DNA of 64,000 nucleotides. Origin: a virus. Taxonomy: Duplodnaviria > Caudoviricetes. The notes beneath the pieces are model-generated. The model had not been told where the DNA came from. It made no database searches and was given only the letters and a program-made list of their open reading frames with translations. The translations under genes were made by a program, and so were the position numbers. This document shows, piece after piece, positions 9,865 to 59,782 of the stretch. The number at the start of each line of letters is the position of its first letter. The first letter of the stretch is position 1. Location of the stretch: the IMG/VR virus record IMGVR_UViG_3300028844_006787; one strand, 5' to 3'.

Positions 9865-10497
9865 CTAAGCATCAAAAGCATAATCAAAATTCTTTAAATC
9901 CTTTGAGTATTTTGTGGTAACAATATGATATAATTCACTATTGTAATAGCATCTATAATCATGGTGGAAATTACTATTTTTGCATTTAAGTTGACTACGA
10001 GCAACACCAATATTATCACATATATTATTAAAATCATCCTGAAGATTTTCGTATCTACCGACATAATCAACACAACATTTATCACCGTCATATACATAAT
10101 CTGACATACTTCTTATATGCTGACGAATACTACATTTTCGTTGTGTATCTTCATCCCAAGAACACTTAACAAAATCATCAAATGTGATTTCCGCAAAATC
10201 TTTATGTAAGTTTTTCCTCCAAAAAAATTCCGAAACTAGTCGGTCATATGGATTTCTAACAAAAGTAAAAGTATAGTATTTTTCACGGTAATTTGTGGGA
10301 ATATACTCATACTCAATATACTCATTTATGGTAAAATGTTGACGATATAATTTATGAACTTTATCCCATCCAATAGGAAAAATTTTTCGCCCATTGGATA
10401 GTGAATCGCATATACTACTCGTTGCGGTTTTAGGAATTTGAATGTAAATAAAATTGTTAGCGGAATCAATCATTAAAAAATTTTTCTCGATTTTCAA
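9865..10497 (-). CDS. sulfotransferase family 2 protein
   Basis: FIYIQIPKTATSSI (5'-PSB loop), FTFVRNPYDRLVS (3'-PB), VGRYENLQDDF. Confidence 0.9.
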   Translation of the reverse strand: MKIEKNFLMIDSANNFIYIQIPKTATSSICDSLSNGRKIFPIGWDKVHKLYRQHFTINEYIEYEYIPTNYREKYYTFTFVRNPYDRLVSEFFWRKNLHKDFAEITFDDFVKCSWDEDTQRKCSIRQHIRSMSDYVYDGDKCCVDYVGRYENLQDDFNNICDNIGVARSQLKCKNSNFHHDYRCYYNSELYHIVTTKYSKDLKNFDYAFDA

Positions 10498-11161
10498 ATA
10501 GTTTTAAATGAAAAATATTGGGTCTTTTATATAAAAAAGAATACTCACAAGATTTTCCTTTATTTGCTGAATGTGGTATATTTTCATTGATTTGCACCAT
10601 GTTGTTGATGGTAGATTTTATAGCATCATCGGTATCATATAACTCACATAATGTATTGTGTATTGTAAATAATTTCCACTCATAATCATGGTTCGTGTAT
10701 TTAGATATAAACAAATTCTTCCATGATTTTATTAAATGATCATTCGGATTATTATTGGTAATATACCAACTTGTTGTTTCTTTATTTCCTTTGTCTGTAA
10801 TACTTCTTGGAACAAATCTATATGTAAAAAAATTCGTTTCATTCACTGTATTAAAAAAAATTTCCTCGAATTTTTGATTGCAATACACACTTGCATCTGT
10901 CCAAGTTCCACCATATTTTTCTAGTAAAATCAAACGAAGCAAATCTGATTTTGCCTGAATTCTACGATAAGGAGAGTTGTTTATTATATCATAATACTCG
11001 GGTGCATATTCTTTTATATTATCATCGTGTAATAATATAAAGTTCTTGTGGTGACTATTTTTTAACCAAGAATTATAGCAGATACTATTTTTTGTATCAT
11101 TCATTAAATTGTCAATTCCTTGAAACCAACACATCCATATAATATGATTATCCAAGTTCAT
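10466..11161 (-). CDS. capsular polysaccharide synthesis protein / GT32-like glycosyltransferase
   Basis: IWMCWFQG, KSDLLRLILLEKYGGTWTDA motif. Confidence 0.85.
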   Translation of the reverse strand: MNLDNHIIWMCWFQGIDNLMNDTKNSICYNSWLKNSHHKNFILLHDDNIKEYAPEYYDIINNSPYRRIQAKSDLLRLILLEKYGGTWTDASVYCNQKFEEIFFNTVNETNFFTYRFVPRSITDKGNKETTSWYITNNNPNDHLIKSWKNLFISKYTNHDYEWKLFTIHNTLCELYDTDDAIKSTINNMVQINENIPHSANKGKSCEYSFLYKRPNIFHLKLFENREKFFND

Positions 11162-11690
11162 AACCTAATTTCTTAAAGTCTTTATAGTACATATCACCTA
11201 CAATTTTCATCGTCTCGTTGGTATAATAATCAATATATGATGTATGATTTGTTTTATTGATATGAACATTTGCATTTTGCATATTGAATTTGTTGAGTAA
11301 ATTATTTAAATCATTTTCATAGTTTTCAAGTTTTCCCACAAAATTTATGTCGTTTGGAAAAAGTGTAGATTGCAACCGAATATGTCTATCACACGAATTC
11401 AAATCAAGATTCCTTATTTCATAAATAAATTCTGTAAAACTATTACAATGACGGTACGAATATAATCCACCTTTGGTTTTATTAACAATTTTGTCTATAT
11501 ATGCAGAAAGCAATCTATCAAATGGATTTCTAACAAATGCCCATGAATAGTAACTTTGGTAATTATGAATTATACTTCTAAATTTTACCGGTTGAAACTC
11601 AAAAATATTAAACATACTTCGTGTCGCACATTTAGGCACTATAAAGTAAATAAACTTATTTTGCTCGTTAACTTGGTATAAATATTTCAT
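11148..11690 (-). CDS. sulfotransferase family 2 protein
   Basis: FIVPKCATRSM, AFVRNPFDRLLSAY, DRHIRLQ, VGKLEN. Confidence 0.9.
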   Translation of the reverse strand: MKYLYQVNEQNKFIYFIVPKCATRSMFNIFEFQPVKFRSIIHNYQSYYSWAFVRNPFDRLLSAYIDKIVNKTKGGLYSYRHCNSFTEFIYEIRNLDLNSCDRHIRLQSTLFPNDINFVGKLENYENDLNNLLNKFNMQNANVHINKTNHTSYIDYYTNETMKIVGDMYYKDFKKLGYELG

Positions 11691-12364: not shown

Positions 12365-12840
12365 AATATTTTGACCTGTGATGATGTCTTGAATTTAAAA
12401 TTTTCTACAACATGAGAAAAAGTAATAAATATTCCTGAACCATTTTCTGTCATATTATGAATTGCAGGTAAACTTAAAAAATATGGGTATGCGTGTTTAT
12501 CAGTTCCAATTATCATACGATACATTTCAGTTTCATTGATATTTTCTGTGCTATGAGTGAATGTAATAATGTGTCCTTCACTTAAACCAAATGTTGGCAA
12601 CAAATTTAATTTATTTTGCTTTTCTACTCGTTGAACATTTACATCAATTTTGCGTATAAATGGTAAATTATTTGTTGAGGTATGATTAGTATCATATTCA
12701 TCGGAATAATCAAAAGTAAACTCAACCAATAAATCATCAAATTTGGTATTTCCGAGTTTAATTTGAGTAGGACAACAATATGAATTACCAAGTGGATCAA
12801 TGTGTTTTTGAAATTGGCATATAAATATATCATCAAGCAT
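12361..12840 (-). CDS. hypothetical protein
   Basis: 159-aa ORF; TTGCCA-N17-TATTAT 6 nt before ATG. Confidence 0.65.
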   Translation of the reverse strand: MLDDIFICQFQKHIDPLGNSYCCPTQIKLGNTKFDDLLVEFTFDYSDEYDTNHTSTNNLPFIRKIDVNVQRVEKQNKLNLLPTFGLSEGHIITFTHSTENINETEMYRMIIGTDKHAYPYFLSLPAIHNMTENGSGIFITFSHVVENFKFKTSSQVKIF

Positions 12841-12883
12841 GATACTATAATATTACTCAATGAATAAATTGGCAAGTTTATTG

Positions 12884-15091
12884 TTATTTCTTAAAAAAAC
12901 TTAAAATCTTACTATTAAACTTAGATACATCTACTCCATTTTTCAAACAAAGTAAACGGTATTTGAGATTTGAATTAAACCACCCATTATACAAATTATT
13001 TATAGTCATCAGAAATGTTTTTTTCTCTTTGCTAATATATTTTGCTTCCATTGAATTGTGATTTAAATTTTCCACAATAAACAAATTGTTGTTTTTTTCA
13101 TAAGATTCAAAAATTGTTTGTGAGTAGGTGGTTGTCTGTGCAATTTCTAATACTTTTGAATTTTTATTTATGCAATTAAAAAGAAATTGAGGGTTTTCAA
13201 ATTCTGTAAATACTACAATATATTTTGATGTTCCTAGAAAATGCATAAATTTATCTACAAGTTTTCCACTTTCGTTATGTGAAACCACCAAATCAATATT
13301 TTTTTCTTTGCAATATGCTTGAAGATTTTGATGTAATTTAGAAAATGTTTCCTCAAGATATTTACATTCACTATGTGGTTTGAGTATTATCAGTCTTTCG
13401 TGTAAGTTATTTTTATTATTATTTTTACACCGAACTTCTCTTATTTTTTGCAAACCATTTAAATTCATTTCTGATAGAATTGGTGAGCATATTGTCAATT
13501 TAGTATTATCTAATAGCAACTCCTTACCATTTTCTAAAATTTCAAAATGTGAAGGTAATAAATCAGCATAATCCATAAAATGATTAGGTGGATTTACTAA
13601 ATAAATTTTATCAAATTTTCCTTTATTCATAGAAATCATACTCAGTAAATTTGATGTAACTAAATGCAATTTAATCTTCCAAAAAGTCTTAATTGACTCA
13701 ACCGGTACCTGTAAATTATTTCTAATATCATTTTCATTTAGGCAAATTACTAAAACATTTTCCTCGTGTAAAGTATATGAATTTATATCATCCGATTCTT
13801 TTGTTATTAGAATCTTACCATTTATACTTTGAAGTTTACACAATGAATTAAATATATATTCATCGTTGAATTTAGAGTAATCATCATTCTTATTTTTTAC
13901 ACAATCGGCATATTTTTTAATATATTCTTTAGCATATGAATTCCCAAAATAAATCGTTTCGGTATTTAAATTGTTATATTTAATAAAATTAAATAACAAG
14001 GTATCCCATTCTGTTCTAGTTTTGAAGATTTTTTTTGTCTCTTCACTTAAATCATTATAATTTAAGGTTTTTACTTTTTCTTTATTTTTGTTATGTTTTA
14101 GCATATTCTCCCAGTTGACTGGTGCCACATCTTTTATGAAATAATAATTTATTAAAATTTTATTTATCAAAATTTCAATATTGTCTAGTGTTGCTAATTC
14201 AAAATCACTTATTTCATCTAAAAAACTATCAAATATTTTTTTTGTCAGTTTAAACTCCACACCGTCACCTATATTATTAAAATTTCTAAATATCCAATCT
14301 TCCTCAAATTCTTCAGATTTTACATATTCATCAAATGTTTTGGAAATTATACCAAGGTGTGTTTTCTCGTGTATAGATGCGTCTGACTTTAAATAATTAT
14401 ACAAACTTCTATGCCTCTCAAATACATCCCTCACAACCATGAAATTTTTAAATTTAAGATTTTGAGATTCTAAAAATTTATTAAGGTCATTTCTATATAT
14501 AAACCCACTACTACATATCTCTATAAATAATATTTTTACATTTTTTTCTATAAAATTAAAATTTAAAAAGTCTTGAAAACTAATAGTATATTGATAATCA
14601 TATCTTGCATCTCCTATTAGTTTATTCTTAGATTTCAAATTGAAAGTATTTTTTAAAAATTCTACTTTTGTTTTTTTATTTTTATTAATATCATGCAACA
14701 AATTTGCATTATCTTCTAGCACGTTATCAAAACCTTTTCCTTTGTCAGTTTCATTGTATCTCACAAATAATTTTAATTTATCTAAATAAGAATCATCACC
14801 TGCACTGAAATAAATTTTAAATAGTAAATTTGAATTTTCATCTAATACTACTAGTTTATTTTTTTTATATGTATGTTTAAACTCATTTAGATTACTCCCC
14901 TCATCAATTCTCCGCATAGTATAATCTAAGTTTTGATTAATTTTGCTACTAAAATATGTTCCCGCACATTTATGAATATGATAGAAAATTGGTATTATTT
15001 TAATTTTATCCAAGAATGAGTCAATTTTATATTCAAACTTATCAACTAAACTTTTGTTAAAATTAATAATTGGTTCAAATTTGTTTTCCAT
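12884..15091 (-). CDS. large sulfotransferase-domain protein, possibly fused to a glycosyltransferase-like C-terminal half
   Basis: IFYHIHKCAGTY and VVRDVFERHRSLYNY sulfotransferase motifs; C-terminal ...SKVLEI segment resembles GT61-like proteins (weak). Confidence 0.65.
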   Translation of the reverse strand: MENKFEPIINFNKSLVDKFEYKIDSFLDKIKIIPIFYHIHKCAGTYFSSKINQNLDYTMRRIDEGSNLNEFKHTYKKNKLVVLDENSNLLFKIYFSAGDDSYLDKLKLFVRYNETDKGKGFDNVLEDNANLLHDINKNKKTKVEFLKNTFNLKSKNKLIGDARYDYQYTISFQDFLNFNFIEKNVKILFIEICSSGFIYRNDLNKFLESQNLKFKNFMVVRDVFERHRSLYNYLKSDASIHEKTHLGIISKTFDEYVKSEEFEEDWIFRNFNNIGDGVEFKLTKKIFDSFLDEISDFELATLDNIEILINKILINYYFIKDVAPVNWENMLKHNKNKEKVKTLNYNDLSEETKKIFKTRTEWDTLLFNFIKYNNLNTETIYFGNSYAKEYIKKYADCVKNKNDDYSKFNDEYIFNSLCKLQSINGKILITKESDDINSYTLHEENVLVICLNENDIRNNLQVPVESIKTFWKIKLHLVTSNLLSMISMNKGKFDKIYLVNPPNHFMDYADLLPSHFEILENGKELLLDNTKLTICSPILSEMNLNGLQKIREVRCKNNNKNNLHERLIILKPHSECKYLEETFSKLHQNLQAYCKEKNIDLVVSHNESGKLVDKFMHFLGTSKYIVVFTEFENPQFLFNCINKNSKVLEIAQTTTYSQTIFESYEKNNNLFIVENLNHNSMEAKYISKEKKTFLMTINNLYNGWFNSNLKYRLLCLKNGVDVSKFNSKILSFFKK

Positions 15092-18458: not shown

Positions 18459-18544
18459 CTTTTTATTCTTTCTGCTTAATGTTAAAAGAATATAATATTA
18501 AGAAGATGGGTTTATGTCAATGACTATTTCTTGGTAAACCTCTT

Positions 18545-19300
18545 TCATATTCCTAATAAATTTTTAATAATGCTAATTCTTAAATTATCTGCATCTTCTT
18601 TTTTATACTTCAAATATTTTTCTTGTAAAATTCCAATATTTTCATGCGACACGTGAACAACACCATAGTTTTCGTTTTCAATATATCCAATATTCGGACC
18701 TGCAAGTATTTTGTTTTCTACAGGATCGATATATCCACCAAATTCATCTCGGTTTCGTGTCATTAAAATATTGTAGTGATTTCTTAGTTTTACATATGAT
18801 TCATTATGATTCATAAAATTATATTGAAAAAATTCTTGGTCATGGTAATGATTTGCTTGATTTTTCAAAATTTCTAAACGTTCGTTGCTTACTTCCACAA
18901 ATGCTTTGCATAAATTTTCAAATTGTTTTGGTGTTCCACTTGCAAGAAATGGACAAGCAAAATCCATAAAATGAAGTTTGTCGTTGGGTTCTGTAATTGA
19001 AAAATTAGCATTGATCGCATCATAATCACTTACATAAAATTTTTCATCTGCTTGAGTTGCATATGCCAACCAACGAAACCAACAACTCATTCCGTATTCA
19101 GAAATTTCGTTATTGGTAATTTCTCGGAAGATTCTACGCATTTCTGTGTTCAAAGTTTCAAAATACGAATGTTTTTTCGCATTATTTAAATTTAGCACGA
19201 TTGGTTCGTAACCATGTCGTGACCAACTCTCTTTCCACAAATCTATAAGTTCGTTTTGGGAAGAATGACTTATCTCTTGGTAGTAAGTGTATATTTTCAT
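18545..19300 (-). CDS. putative glycosyltransferase, tandem paralog 3
   Basis: WxxSWSRxGYEPIVL, CWFRWLAY, VSDYDAIN (DxD), HDQ; ATGA coupling. Confidence 0.6.
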   Translation of the reverse strand: MKIYTYYQEISHSSQNELIDLWKESWSRHGYEPIVLNLNNAKKHSYFETLNTEMRRIFREITNNEISEYGMSCWFRWLAYATQADEKFYVSDYDAINANFSITEPNDKLHFMDFACPFLASGTPKQFENLCKAFVEVSNERLEILKNQANHYHDQEFFQYNFMNHNESYVKLRNHYNILMTRNRDEFGGYIDPVENKILAGPNIGYIENENYGVVHVSHENIGILQEKYLKYKKEDADNLRISIIKNLLGI

Positions 19301-20040
19301 ATTCCTAATAAATCTTTTATTAAAAATAACCTTACGTCATTTTTGCAGGAATTCTTATTATTATTCGTACTATTCAAATACATCGTGGTACTAGCATGAG
19401 AAACATGATAAATTCCATAAGTTTTTGGACTTGGATTTTTTTCATGGTTAGGTAAATAGTAGTCCCCAATCCCACCTTCATGTGATCTATCCCGTGTCAT
19501 TAAAATGTTATACTTATCTTTTAATTCTTCAACAGATTCATTATGGTCTGACATAAAATTGTAAATAAAAAATTCTTGGTCATGATAATGATTTGCTTGT
19601 TGTTTTAAAATGTCTATTCGTTCGTTACTTACTTCTACAAATGCTTTGCATAAATTTTCAAATTGAATTGGAGTTCCACTTGCTAAAAATGGACAATCAC
19701 TATCCATCAAATGAAGTTTATCCTCTGGTTCTGTAATTGAAAAATTAGCATTGATTGCATCGTAATCAGAAACATAAAATTTTTCATCTGATTGTGTTGC
19801 ATATGCCAACCAACGAAACCAACAACTCATTCCGTATTCTTCAATTTCTTTGTTTGTAATTTCTCGAAAGATTCTACGCATTTCTGAATTCAATGTTTCA
19901 AAATAAGAATGCTTTTTTGCATCATTTAAATTTAGCACGATTGGTTCGTAACCTTGACGAGACCAACTAAGTTTCCACAAATCTATAAGTTCGTTTTGGG
20001 AAGAATGACTTATGTCTTGATAATAAGTGTAAATTTTCAT
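19297..20040 (-). CDS. putative glycosyltransferase, tandem paralog 2
   Basis: Near-identical N-terminal two thirds to neighbours. Confidence 0.6.
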   Translation of the reverse strand: MKIYTYYQDISHSSQNELIDLWKLSWSRQGYEPIVLNLNDAKKHSYFETLNSEMRRIFREITNKEIEEYGMSCWFRWLAYATQSDEKFYVSDYDAINANFSITEPEDKLHLMDSDCPFLASGTPIQFENLCKAFVEVSNERIDILKQQANHYHDQEFFIYNFMSDHNESVEELKDKYNILMTRDRSHEGGIGDYYLPNHEKNPSPKTYGIYHVSHASTTMYLNSTNNNKNSCKNDVRLFLIKDLLGI

Positions 20041-20783
20041 TTTGGTTTTTCTATTTTTAATATATCACGAATTATCATTACTCTTGCTCGTTTGCCGTAA
20101 GTTTCCTCATACTTAGCATATGATTTATTTTTTGTGAGAGTAACCCCAGTCATATGATGCGATACATGATAAACCAATGAGTTTTCATTTATATCAGAAC
20201 CACCAAATTTCGTTCTATCATGTGTCATTAAAATGTTATGCTTATCTTTTAATTCTTCGGCAGATTCATTATTTCCTGACATAAAATTGTGCATAAAAAA
20301 GTTTTGGTCATGATAATGATTTGCTTGATTTTTCAAAATTTCTAAACGTTCGTTGCTTACTTCCACAAATGCCTTACACAAATTTTCAAATTGTTTCGGT
20401 GTTCCACTTGCAAGAAACGGACAAGCAGAATCCATAAAATGAAGTTTGTCGTTGGGTTCAGTAATCGGAAAATTAACATTAATTGCATCGTAATCAGAAA
20501 CATAAAATTTTTCTTCAGTTTGAGTTGCATATGCCAACCAACGAAACCAACAACTCATTCCGTAGTCAGAAATTTCGTTATTGGTAATTTCTTTGAAGAT
20601 TCTACGCATTTCTGTGTTCAAAGTTTCAAAATACGAATGTTTTTTTGCATCTTCTAAATTAAGCACGATTGGTTCGTAACCATGTCGTGACCAACTTATT
20701 TTCCACAAATCTATAAGTTCGTTTTGAATAGCATCGTTTTGATCAGAATGATTCATATTCTGATAATAAGTGTATATTTTCAT
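20037..20783 (-). CDS. putative glycosyltransferase, tandem paralog 1
   Basis: Same motifs; TATTTATA at 20788-20795. Confidence 0.6.
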   Translation of the reverse strand: MKIYTYYQNMNHSDQNDAIQNELIDLWKISWSRHGYEPIVLNLEDAKKHSYFETLNTEMRRIFKEITNNEISDYGMSCWFRWLAYATQTEEKFYVSDYDAINVNFPITEPNDKLHFMDSACPFLASGTPKQFENLCKAFVEVSNERLEILKNQANHYHDQNFFMHNFMSGNNESAEELKDKHNILMTHDRTKFGGSDINENSLVYHVSHHMTGVTLTKNKSYAKYEETYGKRARVMIIRDILKIEKPK

Positions 20784-25257: not shown

Positions 25258-25675
25258 TTTTCTCCCAACGATTATCATAATTTAATCTGAAAGTACCTAC
25301 GTAATTGTCGTATCCACCAACACGTTCATTAGGAGCAAACAATGAAATAGTATGCTTGTGTGTTGCATTGTGCTTGGTGTATAAATGATACTCGTTGCCT
25401 ATAACAGGTTTCAAACGAAATTCTGCATTGAACATAATATCATTCCATTTAAAGTCTTCCGCAAGTTCTTCAAATTGCTTTTTAAGTGCTTCAAATTTGT
25501 CTGTGTAATGTTTGTTTGCTGAATGAACTGCTCCGTGTTTCCAACCTGTTAATGAGTGATCAGGTTTAATTACAGGTGCGACCAAATCACTTGCATAAGG
25601 CAATGAGTTCGGATGTGGAACTACATTATCAGGAATCTTTTTCTCGGAATTTATTTCTTCTTCTCGGTCTTCCAT
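25250..25675 (-). CDS. DUF2452-like protein
   Basis: LPYASD..AP.I.P...YNAEF-like FNAEFRLKPVIGNEYHLY...ISLFAPNE...GTFRLNYDNRW. Confidence 0.75.
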   Translation of the reverse strand: MEDREEEINSEKKIPDNVVPHPNSLPYASDLVAPVIKPDHSLTGWKHGAVHSANKHYTDKFEALKKQFEELAEDFKWNDIMFNAEFRLKPVIGNEYHLYTKHNATHKHTISLFAPNERVGGYDNYVGTFRLNYDNRWEKIK

Positions 25676-25989
25676 TTACCACCTGCATCTTTATACATCT
25701 TGGCAGCCCATCCGTTTGCATAAGCAGAAGGATAAACATCAAACTTCTTTTTTGCTTGTCCTACCCAATATGCCCATTTGCTAGGAGAGGTTGGAACATT
25801 CTTTTCAAGAAATAATTGCATTCTTTCTTCTAATGTTTTTCTTTCCATTTCTTCTTTCACTGGTTTTGATTTTGTATCTTTTCCTGCTTGTCGTTTTTTA
25901 CGACCTGCACAATGTGCTTTTTGACTAAATCCTTTGGGTTTGCTACAATCTATTTTCTTTTTGTAGTCGTTGCTCCACTCTTCGTTCAT
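25651..25989 (-). CDS. two-module basic protein (candidate head cargo)
   Basis: EWSNDYKKKIDCSKPKGFSQKAHC module + KFDVYPSAYANGW module joined by VKE/FLE sites. Confidence 0.7.
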   Translation of the reverse strand: MNEEWSNDYKKKIDCSKPKGFSQKAHCAGRKKRQAGKDTKSKPVKEEMERKTLEERMQLFLEKNVPTSPSKWAYWVGQAKKKFDVYPSAYANGWAAKMYKDAGGKWKTEKKK

Positions 25990-26336
25990 GAACCTTTTCC
26001 TGTTCCACTTTTTTTACCACTTTTCTGTGTGTAGGTGCTAACATTGATTGGTTTCTTTCCGTTTCTTCCTGCGGATTCTTTTCCACCTCGGTCTGCATCA
26101 TTTTGGGCTGCTCGTTTTCTACGAGTTGCACTTTCTTTTTCTTTGTCAGACATTTTGCTTGCAGTTGCTTGTGGAACGCATTTAGCATATCCTCGTTTGT
26201 CACCACTTGTACCACACGGAGGATGCTTTCCATCATCATCTTTTTTACCGATGTTCACCCACTTACTTTTAAACCAATTACGTAAATCTTCGTCAATAAT
26301 TTCACGAATGATTTGTTTTAGTTCTGATTTCTTCAT
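25986..26336 (-). CDS. leader-bearing basic protein (start revised to MKKSELKQIIRE)
   Basis: Leader then LRNWFKSKWVNIG...PCG...YAKCVP module. Confidence 0.75.
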   Translation of the reverse strand: MKKSELKQIIREIIDEDLRNWFKSKWVNIGKKDDDGKHPPCGTSGDKRGYAKCVPQATASKMSDKEKESATRRKRAAQNDADRGGKESAGRNGKKPINVSTYTQKSGKKSGTGKGS

Positions 26337-26788
26337 TAAAGATTTCCCCAAAGTTCCTTCCAGTTATCATAATCTTTTGATATATATTTTCTTAAATCTT
26401 TGTCTAAATCTGAACGAACTTGTTCTGCTCCTTTTGGTGTGTGACCCATCGCATCTCGCAAAGCAATTAAAGCAAGATATGCTTTACGATGTTTTTCATA
26501 ACCAGCCTTTTTTGCGATAAAAAGACGTGCTTCCAAATGTTGATTGCGACCAGTCATTCGGGCAATCTTTTTTAATTCTTTATCAGAATATTGTCCGTTC
26601 CTACGTATAGATGCCTCACCTCTTTTTGTGGATAAAACTTCGGAAAGTTCTGTTTGTAAAAATTCTTTAATTTCTGATTTTTTCATTGTAGTATTTTTTG
26701 TTGTTCCTGTTGATTTTATTTCAACATCTTTATTCCAATCTTCTACAAGAATATCTTGAATTAACTTTTTAAGTTCACTTAGTTTCAT
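26336..26788 (-). CDS. leader-bearing protein (start revised to MKLSELKKLIQD)
   Basis: TATTTATA at 26792-26799; second internal leader MKKSEIKEFLQTELSE. Confidence 0.75.
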   Translation of the reverse strand: MKLSELKKLIQDILVEDWNKDVEIKSTGTTKNTTMKKSEIKEFLQTELSEVLSTKRGEASIRRNGQYSDKELKKIARMTGRNQHLEARLFIAKKAGYEKHRKAYLALIALRDAMGHTPKGAEQVRSDLDKDLRKYISKDYDNWKELWGNL

Positions 26789-26831
26789 GCATATAAATAT
26801 ATATAAAACTAAATATTTGACAACAAATAAA

Positions 26832-27104
26832 CTACTCAATAAACGGAGCAATGAATTTTTTCAACTCAACAAGTTCATAAGCAACACGTTGCTCTCCACT
26901 TTCATTCTCAATATGAAACATCAATGAAGAAATTCTTTCGTTTAATTCGGATATAAGTTCTATGCTATCTTCGTCACCACCATCTGCTTCTTCACAAATT
27001 TTTGAGAATGTATCGGTTGATACCCATTTATCAAGAAACTCAAGATGGTTTTCGTTGGCAGAGAAATCTCCGTATAAGTGATCGTGATTATTTTCGTTGT
27101 TCAT
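26832..27104 (-). CDS. acidic hypothetical protein
   Basis: TTGACT-N17-TATTAT 7 nt before ATG. Confidence 0.7.
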   Translation of the reverse strand: MNNENNHDHLYGDFSANENHLEFLDKWVSTDTFSKICEEADGGDEDSIELISELNERISSLMFHIENESGEQRVAYELVELKKFIAPFIE

Positions 27105-27153
27105 GGTTTATATAATATAATTTCCACGAAGTTAAGTCAAATCAAATGTTTAT

Positions 27154-27222
27154 AAAAAAAGAGTTGTTACCAAGATAAACTCGATAACAACTCTGGGAGA
27201 TGATGGTGATATAAAGATATAT
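27154..27222 (-). ncRNA. candidate ~70-nt small RNA with own promoter and terminator
   Basis: TTGACT(27252-27257)-N17-TAATAT(27229-27234); no ATG in transcript; hairpin AGAGTTGTTA...TAACAACTCT + U-run at 27154-27194. Confidence 0.6.
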
Positions 27223-27273
27223 ATATGTATATTATGATTTTATTTCAAAAAAGTCAATTTTTTTTATTTTTTT

Positions 27274-27606
27274 TTACGAAACATAAGCATTTAATTCAAA
27301 ATTACCACTTTCCATGCCATAAACTTGGAAATGAAGATGCTTACGTTGAGGTTTTCCGTTCTTGGTTAATGCAACACTAAACGAATTGCTTTTGCCTACA
27401 CTTGGTCTTGCTCTTCTGTATTTTCCACCAAATGCAACCTCGGTTGTCCAATTTTCTTCGTCTATTTCAAATCCTTTTTTCTCTGCAACTTTTCGTGCTT
27501 CTTCAGCCGCAGACGTAAAAGACTTGTGATAAAGTTTATATTTGTATTCTTTAAGAAGTTTCTGAAACTCTTCTTCTATAACTTGTTTTAATTGTGTTTT
27601 GTTCAT
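27274..27606 (-). CDS. leader-bearing protein
   Basis: MNKTQLKQVIEEEFQKLLKE leader + YHKSFTSA...RPSVGK...LHFQVYGMESGNFELNAY module. Confidence 0.75.
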   Translation of the reverse strand: MNKTQLKQVIEEEFQKLLKEYKYKLYHKSFTSAAEEARKVAEKKGFEIDEENWTTEVAFGGKYRRARPSVGKSNSFSVALTKNGKPQRKHLHFQVYGMESGNFELNAYVS

Positions 27607-28091
27607 TAGAATCCTATTGAAATAACTTCTCCGTCAAATTCAATCCAACGATACTTAGGAGCACCACCTTTGCTTAAATACGCAATGGTATCGGATGTAT
27701 GTCGTTCTGATGATGCTTCTATAACTGCTATAAGTCCGTGTATTCCATCAAACGCAGTTTGTGGTCTGCCTTTAAATAACTTTGTCCAATACTTAATAGA
27801 AAGTTGTGCTTTTTTATCCATTGACTTGATGTCAACTTCACTTGCTTCTGTGATTTCTTTAGTCTTGGGACTTCTATCTTCACCAACAATTTCCCAATCT
27901 TCAATTCCAAGTTTCTTCATTTCCTTACGAAGTTCTTGGTTTATCTTTTTGACTTCAGGTGAATCTGCTCCGTGTTTATCACGTGCTTGAAGTTTTGCCA
28001 AAAGCAAATTGCTATACTTTAAATACTTGGATTTTTCGGTAAGAGTTTCACTTTCCGCAATGATTTTTTCAAATGCTTTGTTGATGTCCAT
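27606..28091 (-). CDS. two-module protein (start revised to MDINK)
   Basis: Tandem TATTTATA at 28095-28112; LTE/ITE junctions. Confidence 0.7.
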   Translation of the reverse strand: MDINKAFEKIIAESETLTEKSKYLKYSNLLLAKLQARDKHGADSPEVKKINQELRKEMKKLGIEDWEIVGEDRSPKTKEITEASEVDIKSMDKKAQLSIKYWTKLFKGRPQTAFDGIHGLIAVIEASSERHTSDTIAYLSKGGAPKYRWIEFDGEVISIGF

Positions 28092-28214
28092 AACTATAAA
28101 TATATATAAATACAAAAAAACTACTCTTCATCGTCTATATTCATTAGAAGTCCGAATATGAATAATAGCAAGGTAAAACCCATACCAACATACAATAGTA
28201 TTTCGTACCACATA

Positions 28215-28649
28215 TTACTCGTCAATAGTAACACTAAATGTGTCACCCTGACGAATGCTAGGAATCAATTCAATTCCTTCAGTAACCTTTCCAAAACAAG
28301 TATGAAGTCCATCAAGATGAGCAGTTGCTTGACGTGAATGAACAATAAAGAATTGTGAACCACCTGTATTGGGTCCTGCGTGTGCCATACTTAATACTCC
28401 TGTGTCGTGATGTTGATTGTCACCATTAACTTCACAATCAATTTGGTATCCTGGTCCACCACTTCCTGTTCCATGTGGACATCCACCTTGTGCTACGAAT
28501 CCGTCAATTACTCTATGAAAGTTTAATCCTTCGTAGAATCCTTTGTTTGCTAAATCGCAAAAGTTCTTCACCGTATTGGGTGCATCGTTATCATAAAACT
28601 CTACTTTGAGAGTGCCTGCATTTGTTGTAATTGTTCCTGTTGTACTCAT
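28215..28649 (-). CDS. ppiB: cyclophilin-type peptidyl-prolyl cis-trans isomerase
   Basis: APNTVKNF...GFYEGLNFHRVIDGFVAQGG...GVLSMAHAGPNTGGSQFFI...HLDGLHTCFGKV. Confidence 0.97.
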   Translation of the reverse strand: MSTTGTITTNAGTLKVEFYDNDAPNTVKNFCDLANKGFYEGLNFHRVIDGFVAQGGCPHGTGSGGPGYQIDCEVNGDNQHHDTGVLSMAHAGPNTGGSQFFIVHSRQATAHLDGLHTCFGKVTEGIELIPSIRQGDTFSVTIDE

Positions 28650-28694
28650 AATAATTGAAATATATTACACAAATAATATACCAATTGCAACTTT

Positions 28695-28958
28695 TTAATT
28701 ACATTTTACGATTCTAAGAGTGCAATCGTTTGAACCTTTAATGATTCTATGAAATGAATTTTTTGGAATAGATATTTTTTGATTCAAAGAAATTGGAAGT
28801 TGATCATCAAATTGAAACTTCCAATCCGTTTCGTGCAATGCTTCTATTTCACGGTCTTCACGATCAAGATGCCATACTAAATCTGTTTCGGGTGTATTTT
28901 CGGAGAATGTACGAATATAAATGTTTTGCCAAATTTTATGTTCTATATATGGTTTCAT
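28695..28958 (-). CDS. cupin-like conserved phage protein
   Basis: LVWHLDREDR...WKFQFDDQLP...IPKNSFHRIIKG. Confidence 0.65.
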   Translation of the reverse strand: MKPYIEHKIWQNIYIRTFSENTPETDLVWHLDREDREIEALHETDWKFQFDDQLPISLNQKISIPKNSFHRIIKGSNDCTLRIVKCN

Positions 28959-29479
28959 AATAATTTTGTAACGGTTCTTGCAAGAGCATGAACTTTTGTT
29001 CCACCAACCGCAGTTCTTAATGAATTAACTGAACTTTGCATAAACTCTGAATCTTTAATTAAATCAAATACTTCTATTCCAGCATTGAATGCCATAAGTA
29101 ACACAACTAGTGCAAACAGAATATGAGTTACTTTATTGATTTGCTTTTCATCTTTGGTAAATAAACCCACTGCTTTGCGAATCGGAAACATAAATCGTTT
29201 ATCGTTTGCTTTAACAAAGTTTTCAATTTTCTCTGCAGCTGCTTGCCCTTTACCAAATTCGTATTTTTTGCTTATGCGTTTTACAAGTTTGCTTAATAGT
29301 CCCATGATACCATTGCTTAACATTACATAAGCAACGATACTTAATACTACTTCGTTTAGTTGTTCTTGATTTTCAAGTTCGTCTTTTAATTCTTTTGCAA
29401 GTTCGTCCGCAATATCAACAAACTCATTTCCAAGTTTGCTTTCTAATTGTATTTCGGAAACTAAACTACCAAGTTTCAT
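28955..29479 (-). CDS. hypothetical protein with hydrophobic helices after an LNE site
   Basis: MKLGSLVSEIQLE leader, QLNE, two hydrophobic segments. Confidence 0.65.
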   Translation of the reverse strand: MKLGSLVSEIQLESKLGNEFVDIADELAKELKDELENQEQLNEVVLSIVAYVMLSNGIMGLLSKLVKRISKKYEFGKGQAAAEKIENFVKANDKRFMFPIRKAVGLFTKDEKQINKVTHILFALVVLLMAFNAGIEVFDLIKDSEFMQSSVNSLRTAVGGTKVHALARTVTKLL

Positions 29480-30073
29480 TTACCAATAGGTATTTTGATT
29501 ATCACCCATTCCAAGTTGCTTTGCATATCGTGGAAGATTGCAAGACCAATATCCAGGAGAGGTTCTATCTTTCTTGGTTGAACATTTATGACGGTCTGCA
29601 AATGCTTTGCGTCTTTCTGGATCTTTGAACTTCACACTAAGACCTGTGGTATCTCCAAAAGAAACTTTACGAACATTACCACTTTTTGGGTCTTTAACAT
29701 AAACATAAAACTTTTTATCTCCACCACGTTTTGGTTTATTAAGTTCAACATCTTTGCCTTGGTATTCAACTTCGTGAATTTGAAATGGACAATCCAATGG
29801 AACTCGTTTTCCTTCATATTCACCCCATGTTCCAATATCAGTATTTTCAATTAAATGTTTATCAACTTCACTCAACTGAATTTTATTTTTAGCATTAAGT
29901 TTTCTTGCTTCTTCAAATAAATCAATATATGAATCTGAACCATAACGAAATACTCCTTCTACTAGAGTAGAATGATTATCAAGATGAAATTGAAGATGCT
30001 TGGATGTTGATTGAATATTAAGAAGATTGTGAATTTCTTCTTTAATAACTGATTTTAGTTTTGCGATTTTCAT
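29480..30073 (-). CDS. leader-bearing two-module protein
   Basis: MKIAKLKSVIKEEI leader; C-terminal EYQGKDVELNKPKRGG...KVSFGD...RRKAFADRHKC...GYWSC module. Confidence 0.8.
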   Translation of the reverse strand: MKIAKLKSVIKEEIHNLLNIQSTSKHLQFHLDNHSTLVEGVFRYGSDSYIDLFEEARKLNAKNKIQLSEVDKHLIENTDIGTWGEYEGKRVPLDCPFQIHEVEYQGKDVELNKPKRGGDKKFYVYVKDPKSGNVRKVSFGDTTGLSVKFKDPERRKAFADRHKCSTKKDRTSPGYWSCNLPRYAKQLGMGDNQNTYW

Positions 30074-55945: not shown

Positions 55946-56089
55946 TTATTTGCATTTACAATCAGAGCAATTTATTTTACAAGGTTCGCAATAGCAGTAA
56001 TTATCTCCGTTACATTTCTTAAGAGTTCTTACATTAGAAGTATTGCAACCCAATAAAAATAAAGAAAATATAGCAATTAAGTATTTCAT
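55946..56089 (-). CDS. 47-aa Cys-rich lipoprotein (missing from ORF track)
   Basis: MKYLIAIFSLFLLGC-NTSNVRTLKKCNGDNYCYCEPCKINCSDCKCK; lipobox LLGC; ATGA overlap with upstream gene. Confidence 0.75.
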   Translation of the reverse strand: MKYLIAIFSLFLLGCNTSNVRTLKKCNGDNYCYCEPCKINCSDCKCK

Positions 56090-56802
56090 TTTTTATTAAG
56101 AAGTTTTTCGGAGTTCCATAAATCAGCAGGATTCTGTGCAAGATCAAGAACTTGAATTCTTGCTTTTGTAACTCCATGTTTATCAGTTAAAATTTTTACA
56201 ATCTTTTTTGCTTCTGCGTGAGATTTTGCTTTGGTGTAAAGTAACTCTTCACGTTTTGCTCCTGGTGGTATTCCCCAAATTGGAAACTCTTTTTCAGATT
56301 CGTGTATTCCTCCTGCAGGATTTACATCTAGATCATTAGTCATATCAGAGGCAAGATAATCACGAGCAATATTAAGATAGTCCGCAGATTTGCTTACTTT
56401 ATCCATTAACCAATTTGGTATATCTTCATCGTCATTCATATTCGCAAGCATTTGTAATATGTTTTCTGAATCTTCACACGCAAGTTTAAGTTTTCTTCTA
56501 AGATAAGAAGCATCTCCTTTACCTGAATGATCTTCATTTATATCCTCGGAAAAACTTACTTTTTTATCTTTTGCATTTACAACATAAGTTGTTTGTTTTG
56601 CATTGTGCTTTTTAGCACTTTTTATTGCATCTTTTTGATTTGAAAACTTTTTACGATTGTCATAATCTGTGAACTTATTGTTGTCCCCAAGATACATTTC
56701 ATCGTTTTGTGCATTTGGACGTTTAACAAAAAATTCTGCTTCTGTTAATGCAGATAATTCTTCTCGGACAATTTCTTTGAGTTTTTGCTTTGTAATTTTC
56801 AT
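56086..56802 (-). CDS. leader-bearing three-module protein
   Basis: MKITKQKLKEIVREELSALTE leader; INE and IHE junctions. Confidence 0.8.
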   Translation of the reverse strand: MKITKQKLKEIVREELSALTEAEFFVKRPNAQNDEMYLGDNNKFTDYDNRKKFSNQKDAIKSAKKHNAKQTTYVVNAKDKKVSFSEDINEDHSGKGDASYLRRKLKLACEDSENILQMLANMNDDEDIPNWLMDKVSKSADYLNIARDYLASDMTNDLDVNPAGGIHESEKEFPIWGIPPGAKREELLYTKAKSHAEAKKIVKILTDKHGVTKARIQVLDLAQNPADLWNSEKLLNKK

Positions 56803-57101
56803 TATTTAATTCCATGTTTCACAAGAAACTTTTTTGCAAGAATCACACCACTATGAGGTGTTTCCATTTTGTATCTTTCGGTATTACTTAACTTTTGATA
56901 TGCTCTAAAAACATTTTTAAGTTTATCTACATCATATGAAGTTTCTTTTGATAAATGATCAACAAATTTTTTTTCATTACTATATCGTCTCATATCAAAT
57001 GAAATCTGATTGATAATGAATTGAAAGTCGGTCAATTGCTCATTTAGAACTGCAAATTCCTCTCGGACAATTTGCTTGATTCTGTTTTTGGAAATTTTCA
57101 T
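56802..57101 (-). CDS. leader-bearing single-module protein
   Basis: MKISKNRIKQIVREEFAVLNE; module homologous to C-terminus of 58880..59782. Confidence 0.8.
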   Translation of the reverse strand: MKISKNRIKQIVREEFAVLNEQLTDFQFIINQISFDMRRYSNEKKFVDHLSKETSYDVDKLKNVFRAYQKLSNTERYKMETPHSGVILAKKFLVKHGIK

Positions 57102-57685
57102 CAATGATCTCTTGCTTTCTTACGAAGACGTTTAAGTGCATTAAATACTTCTCCAATTGCAAGACGATCTTGTTCTACAAAATACAATAAATCACAAACT
57201 GCGTGAGTAACTTCACCAGCATATCCTTTTAGTTTATTGTTTTTTGATACTTTGCGGATTGCAGTATGCATATCAAAATACAGTGATTGAAACTCTTTAA
57301 ATTCTGATTTACCGTTTGCTGAACTTTCATCAACGTCTGCTTCACTTATATTAAGTTTTGCTTTGATTGCTTTTTTAAGAATTGTATCACGTTGAGCATC
57401 GTTTTGTGACATCCATACACTATCGTATGTATTGCCATCTCCGTTGTCGTACAAATCTGTATTAAGTTTTTTTGGAAGAATTTTATGAAATAGACGATTG
57501 TTGTAACTATCTTTTCCACCTGCAATTTTAGCAAATACCATACGCAGAGTATTTTTAACAGTTTTGAAATCTGTATCTTTATCAACAAGATTTGCTTTTT
57601 TCATATTATCAAGAATCACAAGTGCGTCTTTTAAAAACTGCTTTTTGTGTTCAGGTGATACTTTTACTTCATTTACTTTTTTCAT
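57101..57685 (-). CDS. two-module protein
   Basis: MKKVNE start; ISE/VDE junction. Confidence 0.75.
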   Translation of the reverse strand: MKKVNEVKVSPEHKKQFLKDALVILDNMKKANLVDKDTDFKTVKNTLRMVFAKIAGGKDSYNNRLFHKILPKKLNTDLYDNGDGNTYDSVWMSQNDAQRDTILKKAIKAKLNISEADVDESSANGKSEFKEFQSLYFDMHTAIRKVSKNNKLKGYAGEVTHAVCDLLYFVEQDRLAIGEVFNALKRLRKKARDH

Positions 57686-57978
57686 TTGTCATCGGGTCCT
57701 ATTGCTAAATGATTTTTGAATATTCCGAAGATTTCATTGCTAGGAATATATCCAGGAAGAAGTTTGCTTAAATCAGTTGCAGACATTCTTTTTTTCTTTT
57801 TTAAATCTTTTTCAAGTTGTTTCATTCCTTTTGAACCAAGATACTCATCTTCCCAATCAAGATTCTTTTTGATGGTGTCAAGAATAGTTTGTGTTGGTAA
57901 GTCCTTGGAAGTATGAGGACGCATTTCGTTGAGTTCCTCACGAACGATTTGTTTAAGTTGTTCTTTTGTAATTTTCAT
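57682..57978 (-). CDS. leader-bearing protein
   Basis: MKITKEQLKQIVREELNE. Confidence 0.8.
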   Translation of the reverse strand: MKITKEQLKQIVREELNEMRPHTSKDLPTQTILDTIKKNLDWEDEYLGSKGMKQLEKDLKKKKRMSATDLSKLLPGYIPSNEIFGIFKNHLAIGPDDK

Positions 57979-57984
57979 TTTAAA

Positions 57985-58342
57985 TTATTTTTTTAAAATA
58001 CTTTCTATTTTGTTGATATAAGTTTTAAGTGTTTTTAAATAAATTTTTGAATCAGTAACTATATTACCTGTTGGTTTAAATTTAAAAGTTTTACTGAAAA
58101 CTACATTACCATCTTCATCGTTTACTTGAATTGGTATTACTTCTTGTCCGTCCCATCCTAGTGTGGCATAAATTGTACAATCAGGAAACTTTGGATTTTC
58201 CCATGCCCAACTTCCACTCATTCCTTCTACTTCGAGTTTCCAACCCATAAGATTTACTCGTTTTTGTAAAAGAAATTTTTTAAGATTTACATTATCTACT
58301 TCTTCACGAATAATTTCTTTTAATCTGTTTTTTGAAATTTTC
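57985..58342 (-). CDS. leader-bearing protein (ORF track 57985..58344)
   Basis: MKISKNRLKEIIREEV. Confidence 0.75.
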
Positions 58343-58883
58343 ATAACGAAGTTCTAAGACCTGTATGTTGTTCAAACGCATCACGAAGCATATCCGCATA
58401 AATTCCTTTTGCCTTGCTTTTTACTTTTTCTTTGTAGTTTCTTACCGAAAGAAATTCAACATCGTAAGTGTCCATGCTATTCAAATTAATACGAACATAA
58501 TTTACACCTTTTGAATTTCTTCCGATTTTAAATACAACTCCTTTTGGTCCCAAAAAGAAATCTTTTGCTCCAGTCATTGCAATGAAACGACCACCACCTA
58601 GTTGTTTAATAACTTCAGCACCTTGTCGTTTATCCATTCCTTCTGTTATGGATTTCAATTCTTCCTTAATAATTTCTTTGAGTTTTTCTTTGATGTCACT
58701 TATAGGAATAATATCTTCTTCACCCGAAGATGGTTTTACTTTTACAAAGTTGTGTGCGAAACCTTTTCCTTTTCCACCGAGTTTAAGCACTTTTGCTTTT
58801 TTATTATTTTTAAGAGTTACAGTATCTCCGACTTTTAATTCTTCACGAATTATTTCTTTTAGTTTTTGTTTTGTGATTTTCAT
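58341..58883 (-). CDS. double-leader two-module protein
   Basis: MKITKQKLKEIIREE + SH3/KOW-like LKVGDTV; internal KLKEIIKEELKSITE + QLGGGRFIAMTGAK module. Confidence 0.8.
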   Translation of the reverse strand: MKITKQKLKEIIREELKVGDTVTLKNNKKAKVLKLGGKGKGFAHNFVKVKPSSGEEDIIPISDIKEKLKEIIKEELKSITEGMDKRQGAEVIKQLGGGRFIAMTGAKDFFLGPKGVVFKIGRNSKGVNYVRINLNSMDTYDVEFLSVRNYKEKVKSKAKGIYADMLRDAFEQHTGLRTSL

Positions 58884-59782
58884 TTTTTGATTCCTAACTT
58901 TGCAAGAAACTTTTTCATTTTACCTACATCAGTTTGCAGTTCAAATCTATCTTTAGCATTTACTTTCCAATATGCTTTAAACAACTTGATAAGTGTTTTT
59001 TCATCGTATTGAGTATCATCTGACATAAATTTAGCAAAATCACGTTCGGTGTAGTGATCCATTGCATTACTAAGTTGATCAATTAGAAAATCATAATCGG
59101 ACATTGCTTCCGTTACAAAATCTTCTTTAAGTGATGCTTGTAGTTTTTTTAAAATCTTAGCAATGTGTTTTTTAACATCACCTCTAAGTCTACTTTTGTT
59201 TTTTGCAACAATGTCGGCAAGATAATCTACTTTGAAATACTTTAATCCTTTTGTAGTTGCCATAGGATGTGATTCATATCCAAGTGCGTTGATTAAACCA
59301 ACTGCAAGTTGTTGCTCAAGTGAAGATAAAGCACTTGCGTCTATATTTGCTCCACCTTCTTCTGAAATGCCTTCACGTCTCATGCGTTTTCCACGTTTAT
59401 TGGTTTTTCCACCACGTTCATCCCAAACAGAACCCTTGCATTGTTTCATTGCCTCGGAATAAGAATAACCCATTCCCATGTAATCTTGAATGCAGTCGTG
59501 CATTTCTTCGTTGATTGCTTCTGCAAGACGAACTTCACGTTTGTCTCCACCATAAAGTGTTACAGTTGAAGTGCGACCTTTTTTTTGTACATCAACGTGA
59601 CCTTTTAGTTTTCCACTATCATGCACCTTAACAACAACTCCATCGTGGTTACCATTAAATTTTACTTCATCACCAACTTTAAACTTTTGGTTTTCATTAA
59701 CAAGTTCTAATAACACTTCACGAATAATATCTTTAATCTTGTGATGTGATTCTGTTTCATTTGTTTCCTGTGAATTTTCCAT
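58880..59782 (-). CDS. four-module protein (start revised to MENSQ)
   Basis: KIKDIIREVLLELVNE leader; INE, ISE, VTE junctions; TATTTATT 3 nt upstream. Confidence 0.8.
   Translation of the reverse strand: MENSQETNETESHHKIKDIIREVLLELVNENQKFKVGDEVKFNGNHDGVVVKVHDSGKLKGHVDVQKKGRTSTVTLYGGDKREVRLAEAINEEMHDCIQDYMGMGYSYSEAMKQCKGSVWDERGGKTNKRGKRMRREGISEEGGANIDASALSSLEQQLAVGLINALGYESHPMATTKGLKYFKVDYLADIVAKNKSRLRGDVKKHIAKILKKLQASLKEDFVTEAMSDYDFLIDQLSNAMDHYTERDFAKFMSDDTQYDEKTLIKLFKAYWKVNAKDRFELQTDVGKMKKFLAKLGIKK

Follow-up and report, generated by a model that had tools for sequence, protein, structure and literature searches.

In phage T4 the internal proteins carry N-terminal propeptides of 10–19 residues, which target them to the prohead core and are removed by the protease gp21 cutting after L/I-x-E (PMC9026906). 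Within the capsid-targeting sequence (CTS) of T4 IPIII, residues 4 and 7 serve targeting and residues 8 and 10 processing (PMC9026906), and in phiKZ-like giant phages such as 201phi2-1 and SPN3US many head proteins are cut after Glu by a diverged gp21 homologue (PMC9026906). Here we describe a family of short N-terminal leaders on small basic proteins encoded between positions 25,651 and 30,073 of the virus record IMGVR_UViG_3300028844_006787, a stretch of 64,000 nucleotides (the window, to which all positions refer), and we argue that this leader is probably a capsid-targeting propeptide, a reading to which we give a probability of roughly 0.55.

The window has a GC content of ~31%, nearly every gene lies on the minus strand, and the gene content includes rIIA, rIIB, a fragment of a DnaE-type polymerase, an ATP-dependent ligase and a pair of PSCyt2/PSD1 and DUF1501 genes. 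Searches at the DNA and protein level matched it to T4-related myophages from the sea (Methylophilales phage Melnitz, Pelagibacter phage HTVC008M, cyanomyophages and Flavobacterium phage immuto), and judged by its sequence the source is a large uncultured marine phage with the T4-type genes rIIA and rIIB. For the flanks we used a near-identical 205-kb JGI contig, of which ~100 kb, namely the window and both sides, were inspected in 20-kb steps.

Results and Discussion

The genes of the cluster are listed in Table 1. A preliminary description of the window had placed their N-termini in one leader family with an array of tagged genes at 56–60 kb, and every peptide quoted there could be located on minus-strand open reading frames (ORFs). 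The leaders of the cluster are amphipathic helical stretches of 12–16 residues at the extreme N-terminus, they follow the pattern MK-x(2-4)-L-K-x-[IV]-I-x-E and they are found on at least four genes at 25.9–30.1 kb. Searching the aligned N-termini against 5.8 billion proteins returned 400 proteins of 85 to 653 residues at E ≤ 0.1, nearly all of which have the leader at residue 1 in a form close to the family consensus MKITKxQLKQIIREEL, followed by unrelated sequence. From these metagenomic proteins 79 non-redundant canonical leaders were aligned, in which positions 1–5 read MKI[TS]K, with L or I at position 8 and I at position 11; all 79 have I or V at position 12, 74 have R or K at position 13 and 77 have E at positions 14 and 15. 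The leader ends with [IV]-x-E, frequently with another L-x-E a few residues downstream. At least 594 matches to the leader pattern were found in IMG/VR, and among 40 loci fetched the leaders form tandem arrays of up to ~10 consecutive genes. In the literature on the leader, on CTS in marine phages and on the hypervariable regions of pelagimyophages we found no description of it, and a tblastn search of cultured phages with the 30-residue consensus leader gave nothing useful, the query being too short.

A first hidden Markov model (HMM), built only from the five leaders of the 56–60 kb array and searched against 995 six-frame segments of the window, placed the N-termini at 26336 (9.1 bits), 27606 (8.8 bits) and 30073 (5.4 bits) among the best non-training matches; two further sites scored in a similar range (59740 at 7.1 bits and 48371 at 6.6 bits) and the remainder stayed at or below 3.3 bits. 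With a stricter HMM made from the 79 leaders, the same three N-termini reached 18.1 bits (30073), 17.4 bits (26336) and 13.5 bits (27606), against a maximum of 9.8 bits among 5,400 composition-matched shuffles and at most 5.8 bits for other N-termini of the window outside the 56–60 kb array. A fourth, MKLSELKKLIQDILVE at 26788, scored 16.9 bits with a broader HMM only, and this value is partly circular as that model included its own homologues. MKLGSLVSEIQLE and MDINKAFEKIIAE gave −0.9 and −1.8 bits with the 79-leader HMM and are at noise level with both the 79-leader and the broad model, and no leader was found on 25651–25989. Membership of the 56–60 kb family therefore holds for four of the six N-termini proposed; it is not supported for MDINKAFEKIIAE and is retained for MKLGSLVSEIQLE solely through an ortholog, gene 175 of Flavobacterium phage immuto (BLASTP E 4e-27), whose N-terminus MKKSELVKLIKEEL is a clear leader. 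MKLGSLVSEIQLE itself may at best be a degenerate leader. The resemblance of MDINKAFEKIIAE is limited to the pattern h-x-x-h-I-x-E, comparable to FIAE in the T4 sequence; a kinship of its protein with immuto gene 176 was considered and rejected when comparison revealed no homology.

A T4-type CTS is expected to be a short propeptide that proteins without other kinship share at their very N-terminus. A leader placed in this way is present, with three copies above all shuffles and a fourth recognized by the broad HMM. The copies differ in their synonymous codons and share no upstream DNA, so the leader is conserved at the protein level. For 27274–27606 the orthologs begin with MKHSDLKQIIREEL or contain MNKSDLKQVIREEL (DLKQIIREEL), both nearer to the consensus leader than its own start. 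The protein 26336–26788 contains a second leader-like stretch, KKSEIKEFLQTELSE, at residues 56–71 (~26576–26623); its homologues P0022, P0037 and P0039 have the first ~30 residues in common with it, and in P0039 the internal Met is replaced by Thr. The leaders of the cluster end in L/I-x-E-type sites of the prohead protease (IRE and IDE, LVE, IEE, IKE), which is weak evidence by itself because this motif is short. The observation of a leader-tagged cluster is real and was in part, indeed for the larger part, confirmed.

The link to a prohead protease comes from relatives. Peptidase_S77, the family of gp21, is encoded by 10 of 12 large leader-bearing IMG/VR contigs, and of the two that lack it one is 29% and the other 45% complete. 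Immuto, Melnitz and HTVC008M have this protease and the podophages HTVC027P and HTVC106P do not; immuto has four leader-like N-termini (10–29 bits) and the two podophages have none (maximum 6.1 bits). The IMG/VR contig G013 is a true relative of this phage, with an rIIB that is 66% identical and 17 window proteins matching in synteny, and encodes Peptidase_S77 (E 6.9e-29). The three genes that separate its protease from the putative scaffold and the major capsid protein (MCP) begin with MKKSELKKLIEDVISEE, MNKQQIKNLVQKQILE and MKITRTELKKIIKEVISE, the first of them adjoining the protease and being nearly identical to the cluster leader MKLSELKKLIQDILVE. On a second contig, G004, the gene directly after the protease begins with MKVTREHLQQIIREEIAKLDE and is followed by a DGHHR (ParB-like) protein and a 136-amino-acid protein, both with leader-like starts, all of them between portal and MCP. 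The 136-amino-acid protein had no match among isolates. As a separate observation, the DGHHR protein (362 residues, ParB-like by eye, L062:10131-11219, start MKTKLKELVKDLQILNE) lies between protease and MCP and is a candidate for a packaged nuclease-like protein. A very basic 77-amino-acid protein inside the same head module (L062:9475-9708) is presumably similar to the ribosomal protein bS21, which it resembles by eye.

The preliminary description had further expected the cluster to hold the more conserved members of the cargo system, which proved correct. The conserved core of 25986–26336 (EDLRNWFKSKWVNIGKK..HPPCGTSG..YAKCVP..ATRRKRAAQN) has 785 homologues, and an aligned sample of 39 is 63–88% identical to it; 36 columns do not vary, among them H38, C41 and those of ATRRKRAAQN. 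The protein matches phrog_23735 (E 1.3e-17), while DUF5872 (PF19197) stays at 15.3 bits under its gathering cut-off of 27.5 and reaches 21 bits with a podophage homologue. For the domain of 29480–30073, which matches phrog_7595 significantly (E 8.1e-14, residues 103–179), there are 3,941 cluster representatives. Together with this DUF5872-like core and the phrog_7595 domain, the CSKPKGF and YPSAYAN modules of 25651–25989 make up the unusually conserved cargoes. The modules are also, as had been described, basic and often Cys-containing: the tagged proteins of the cluster have isoelectric points (pI) of 9.2–10.0 and 18–26% K+R, and three cluster proteins hold 2–3 Cys; the quoted Cys motifs are present (DCSKPKGFSQKAHC in 25651–25989, PCG..KC in 25986–26336 and RHKC..YWSC in 29480–30073). 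DNA-condensing or Zn-binding roles, which had been suggested for these proteins, are not supported by anything beyond this basic composition and the conserved Cys/His residues, and none of the Atlas neighbours has an assigned function.

These cargoes are modular. At least five different N-terminal extensions precede the invariant 25986–26336 core among its 785 homologues, namely MKKSELKQIIRE, MKLQDIIDEIFEE, MIKLKDLLDE, MKLNDILNEILEE, leaders with an extra CxxCG, or almost none. On one contig the upstream neighbour of a MKLEDIIEEIFNE-tagged copy starts with MIKLKDILNE, hinting that leaders of related types go with the cargo inside a single lineage. In P0218 the core is joined to CSNPKGF and YPSAYAN, thus to both modules of 25651–25989, in a single leader-tagged protein. 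Module 1 of 25651–25989 is 79.5% identical to gp122 of cyanophage Bellamy, which begins MKSFKQFQE and whose gene sits between the small and large terminase genes; module 2 matches phrog_27331, and the linker between the modules holds VKE and LEE sites near the point where the Bellamy protein stops. In the podophages HTVC027P, HTVC106P and DSL-LC04 the core and the YPSAYAN module occur as tiny leaderless Lys-rich proteins, in HTVC106P together with the phrog_7595 module, and in DSL-LC04 these genes have the MCP/cement genes on one side and the adaptor gene on the other. The phrog_7595-type domain of 29480–30073 is C-terminal in all family members, on proteins of 147–1409 residues. Among the longer ones, many show a nucleotidyltransferase-like GRFNPPT.GH stretch not far from the N-terminus, their first residues being MKKFSEIREA, MQKFFEFMEA or MKTFKNLIEA. 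Melnitz genes 17 and 18 and many further members have MKKFSE..., MQKFFEFMEA... or similar starts, gene 18 beginning MKKFSEIIEA and having a cytidylyltransferase-like Pfam match. Cargo homologues in Bellamy, Melnitz and many metagenomic proteins thus show T4-like starts of the MKSFKQFQE or MKKFSEIIEA kind. The same cargo is found with different leaders, fused or leaderless, which means that the tag is separable from the cargo.

Some further observations were made on these families. Many homologues of 25986–26336 (P0125, P0131, P0151 and others) have an extra C-x-x-C-G just before the core and hence four Cys; the 116-amino-acid protein of the window has no CxxC and retains H38, C41 and C53. A metal site, if there is one, would thus not be common to all family members. 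P0195 is a fusion of the core and YPSAYAN, and in the window only the first of the two genes that overlap by ATGA (25986–25989) is tagged; 25986–26336 and 25651–25989 may be linked by translational coupling or co-assembly. Melnitz genes 17 and 18 (L002:1205-3546), P0382, P0450, P0501 and others are large proteins with a nucleotidyltransferase-like N-terminal part, and their N-termini (MKKFSEIIEA, MQKFFEFMEA, MKKFSELTSELIE) closely resemble the CTS of T4 IPII/IPIII and IPI. By analogy with T4 Alt, such proteins may be packaged enzymes.

What is observed directly is the leader family, where it sits on the proteins, how it is distributed and how modular the cargo is; from this we infer targeting, cleavage and packaging as follows. 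The leader would dock its protein on the scaffold or core of the prohead, as the T4 CTS does, and a gp21-type (Peptidase_S77) prohead protease would then cut it off after [IV]-x-E. The small basic mature protein would be left in the head with the DNA and possibly be delivered on infection. Other lineages have the same modules on different leaders, fused in one polypeptide, or leaderless, as in the two protease-less podophages. Capsid targeting and protease release of the cluster proteins are plausible on comparative grounds, namely the co-occurrence with S77, the leader-like genes flanking the protease in relatives, the leaderless podophage copies and the T4-CTS-like leaders of homologues from cultured Kyanoviridae.

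Several points weigh against this. The [LIV]-x-E motif is frequent as well as short, and several internal copies are present in the cluster proteins. The co-occurrence in 10 of 12 contigs is not corrected for how common T4-like phages are among large contigs from the sea. Neither a protease nor a head module was found in the ~100 kb inspected of the near-identical contig, and a protein search with immuto gp21 returned close immuto relatives alone and did not reveal the protease of this phage. Untagged genes (the peptidyl-prolyl isomerase, the acidic 90-amino-acid gene and the 87-amino-acid gene) share the cluster. One tagged family, that of 28955–29479 and immuto gene 175, has the look of membrane proteins and would be an odd cargo for a head. 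Early transcription of the 27104–25651 unit is possible, since sigma-70-like sites lie directly upstream. Finally, in the AlphaFold2 (AF2) models the leader helix (residues 2–22 in 29480–30073, 3–25 in 25986–26336) is continuous with the domain's first helix, and the leader might accordingly belong to the fold.

This last point leads to the alternative that survives best, although we consider it unlikely: the leader could be a structural or oligomerisation helix, spread by recombination among hyperplastic small genes, integral to its proteins and never removed, without any role at the capsid, the link to T4 merely following phylogeny. Besides the continuous helix, the position of the arrays among non-structural genes (ligase, DnaE fragment, rII) fits this idea, and as large marine contigs are mostly T4-like, the S77 co-occurrence could be a base rate. 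However, an invariant core that occurs variously tagged or leaderless argues that the helix is dispensable for the fold, and there is no conserved DNA around the leader, whose synonymous codons differ. Nor would a structural helix account for an I-[IV]-[RK]-E-E end that hardly varies, or for the leader-like starts found on the protease-flanking genes. The models themselves are of unequal quality. The one for 29480–30073 has a mean predicted local distance difference test score (pLDDT) of 85.5 and had no Foldseek match in the PDB at E ≤ 0.001 (E > 0.5) and a best VIA-align Z of 3.6; Sso7d/Cren7 and winged-helix rows among its matches were too weak and were not counted as evidence. The model for 25986–26336 is poor, with a mean pLDDT of 59.6.

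Less probable still is that the leader is a handle for proteostasis, for example a ClpXP degron or a chaperone tag, by which early proteins would be turned over or folded in a timed manner. Near the window are two genes for ClpP and one each for a ClpX-like AAA_2 ATPase, DnaK and DnaJ, the cluster itself has a cyclophilin, ClpP is present in five of the 12 leader-bearing contigs including the two most complete ones, and the upstream promoter-like sites look early. Yet immuto, Melnitz, Bellamy and T4 have leader- or CTS-like N-termini without ClpP, and the ClpP genes are far from the arrays, whereas the S77 protease of G004 and G013 has leader-like genes right beside it. Known ClpX N-degrons are shorter and are not amphipathic helices of 16 residues. 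Very improbable is the idea that MKLGSLVSEIQLE and MDINKAFEKIIAE, perhaps the whole cluster, are chance likenesses among ordinary N-termini of an AT-rich phage with an MK start and much K, E, I and L, which is credible for these two noise-level N-termini only, for even though composition-matched shuffles attain up to 9.8 bits, the remaining three or four N-termini score above every shuffle and the ortholog of 28955–29479 has a clear leader at the same position.

A wider reading can be proposed tentatively, which we would at present rather doubt than assert. Marine T4-related phages might run a general system of cargo loading, in which interchangeable, lineage-specific leaders (MKITKxQLKQIIREEL, MKKSELKQIIRE, MIKLKDLLDE, MKLQDIIDEIFEE and the T4-like MKxFxEF) route hundreds of proteins into the prohead. 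On this view the DUF5872-like core, the phrog_7595 domain and the YPSAYAN module, all of them highly conserved and basic, would represent widespread virion proteins that associate with DNA and that podophages and even archaeal viruses also have, their mode of packaging being lineage-specific. If the leader is a capsid-targeting signal, a curiosity of three proteins in T4 would turn into something of major weight for the biology of ocean phages: in each genome dozens of proteins would ride in the capsid and reach the host with the DNA, and there would be a first functional handle on the widespread DUF5872-like, phrog_7595 and phrog_27331 families. The cluster also points to cultured phages for a direct test, namely Flavobacterium phage immuto, Methylophilales phage Melnitz and Synechococcus phage Bellamy.

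Table 1: Features of the cluster and the reference array, with positions in the window.
Position	Strand	Feature	Remarks
29480..30073	-	197-amino-acid basic protein	leader MKIAKLKSVIKEEI (~14 codons, 30032-30073), then conserved ~175-amino-acid two-part domain ending RHKC..YWSC
28955..29479	-	174-amino-acid protein with two hydrophobic transmembrane (TM)-like segments (residues ~44-62 and ~117-138)	N-terminus MKLGSLVSEIQLE
28695..28958	-	untagged 87-amino-acid gene	conserved neighbour of the 197-amino-acid family
28215..28649	-	cyclophilin-type peptidyl-prolyl isomerase, untagged, within the cluster	Pfam Pro_isomerase (PF00160), E 3.7e-40
27606..28091	-	161-amino-acid protein	N-terminus MDINKAFEKIIAE
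27274..27606	-	110-amino-acid basic protein	leader MNKTQLKQVIEEEF
27112..27257	-	regulatory gap: two sigma-70-like promoter matches (27257-27229, 27140-27112) around a hairpin	consensus matches only
26832..27104	-	acidic 90-amino-acid gene (pI 4.3), untagged	first gene downstream of the promoter-like site
26336..26788	-	150-amino-acid basic protein	leader MKLSELKKLIQDILVE, then conserved DWNKDVEIKSTG stretch
25986..26336	-	116-amino-acid basic protein	leader MKKSELKQIIREIIDE, conserved core, disordered Gly/Lys tail
25651..25989	-	untagged 112-amino-acid basic gene, two modules	module 1 CSKPKGFSQKAHC, module 2 YPSAYANGWAAK; ATGA overlap with 25986-26336
56086..59782	-	reference array of leader-tagged genes	five begin MKI[TS]K..[LI]K.I[VI]REE

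Among the other genes of the cluster, 28955–29479 had been thought to release a membrane-inserting piece. This is reasonable with regard to its two TM-like segments, in both of which the 19-residue Kyte–Doolittle mean exceeds 2.0. Genes similar to 28695–28958, with WH.D..DRE and HR.IKG motifs recognized by eye, follow a member of the 197-amino-acid family in immuto (gene 172) and in Melnitz (gene 19), and scans with Pfam and PHROG profiles gave no family match for it. The isomerase 28215–28649 scores 138 bits with PF00160, far above the gathering cut-off of 21.7. Between it and the start at 28091 there is a GTG-started ORF of 41 codons on the minus strand (28121–28246) for a very hydrophobic peptide, which may be a small membrane protein or no gene at all.

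Two motif sites upstream of cluster genes had been pointed out. The motif TATTTATA is real: the plus strand reads TATAAATA at 26792 and 28095, and the coding strand TATTTATA, 4 nucleotides before the ATGs at 26788 and 28091. The consensus of T4 late promoters is TATAAATA, and TATTTATA on the coding strand does not read as this consensus. The 7-mer TATTTAT has 13 sites within 40 nucleotides upstream of 12 of the 108 window genes, compared with 1.4 expected; nine of these are 4–9 nucleotides from the ATG, the coding-strand motif being ATATTTAT(A), and positions include 26792, 28095, 15098, 20788, 39971 and 47597. In G013 (L081-L089) the motif also precedes many genes, structural and non-structural, including DnaJ-like and epimerase-like ones. 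Its value as a late-promoter sign is thereby lost, and because it precedes both kinds of genes alike it says nothing on the timing of expression, nor did the PHROG annotation of other ATATTTATA-bearing genes give a clue to it. At 4–9 nucleotides from the ATG it leaves no room for a Shine–Dalgarno sequence, and it might act as the promoter of leaderless mRNAs or else signal the start of translation. Between the two sigma-70-like sites of Table 1 lies a terminator-like hairpin (27194–27160) with a 15-bp stem.

The flanks on the near-identical contig encode sulfotransferases, glycosyltransferases, two ClpP, a ClpX-like ATPase, DnaK, DnaJ and two glutamate dehydrogenases, and also an IF1-like protein. 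The phage has its own proteostasis set of two ClpP homologues, a ClpX-like AAA_2 ATPase, DnaJ and DnaK (HSP70) at L075:5566-6183 and 10001-11197 and L076:11848-12492, 12804-13895 and 18479-20401, in addition to the cyclophilin of the window. The ENA contig L068 (528,892 bp, more than twice the 222-kb contig of this phage) has the same gene order around the leader array, namely AAA ATPase, array, PSCyt2/PSD1 and DUF1501 (in pieces), and could represent either a relative with a far larger genome or an assembly made of concatemers.

Comparison with known systems

With the propeptides and ejection proteins of phiKZ-like phages the marine system would have in common that a gp21-like protease cuts behind the Glu of a minimal motif. 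These phages cut at S/A-x-E and no shared leader is described for them in PMC9026906, whereas the marine leaders form one family ending in I/V-x-E. Marine podophages have clustered small basic proteins (HTVC027P gp49, gp50 and gp52; HTVC106P gp25, gp26 and gp30; and those of DSL-LC04) that are homologous to the mature parts of 25986–26336, 25651–25989 and 29480–30073 and are assigned to DUF5872, DUF6321, phrog_23735, phrog_7595 and phrog_27331. Unlike the cluster proteins they have no leader, and no S77 protease is encoded in the two full genomes checked (HTVC027P and HTVC106P).

The closest parallel is the T4 CTS of IPI, IPII, IPIII and Alt with its protease gp21. In both cases a short N-terminal stretch with a hydrophobic-x-Glu end, in the marine phages a putative propeptide, is found on unrelated, mostly basic proteins, the marine carrier lineage encodes a Peptidase_S77, and the genes are located outside the head module as are the ip genes of T4. 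In the T4 record IPII and IPIII begin MKTYQEFIAE and IPI begins MKTFKEFTSTTTPVSTITE, and the hydrophobic spacing is the same, with Y4-F7-I8-E10 of T4 corresponding to L8-I11-I12-E14 of the marine leader and to L6-I9-I10-E12 of MKKSELKQIIRE. The marine leader is longer and of a different sequence family (MK..LKxIIxEE in contrast to MKTYQEFIAE), and the shared feature is a pattern for which homology is not demonstrable. T4 internal proteins are hypervariable, in contrast to the highly conserved cargoes of the cluster, and where T4 has three such proteins, the marine leader tags hundreds of them in tandem arrays.

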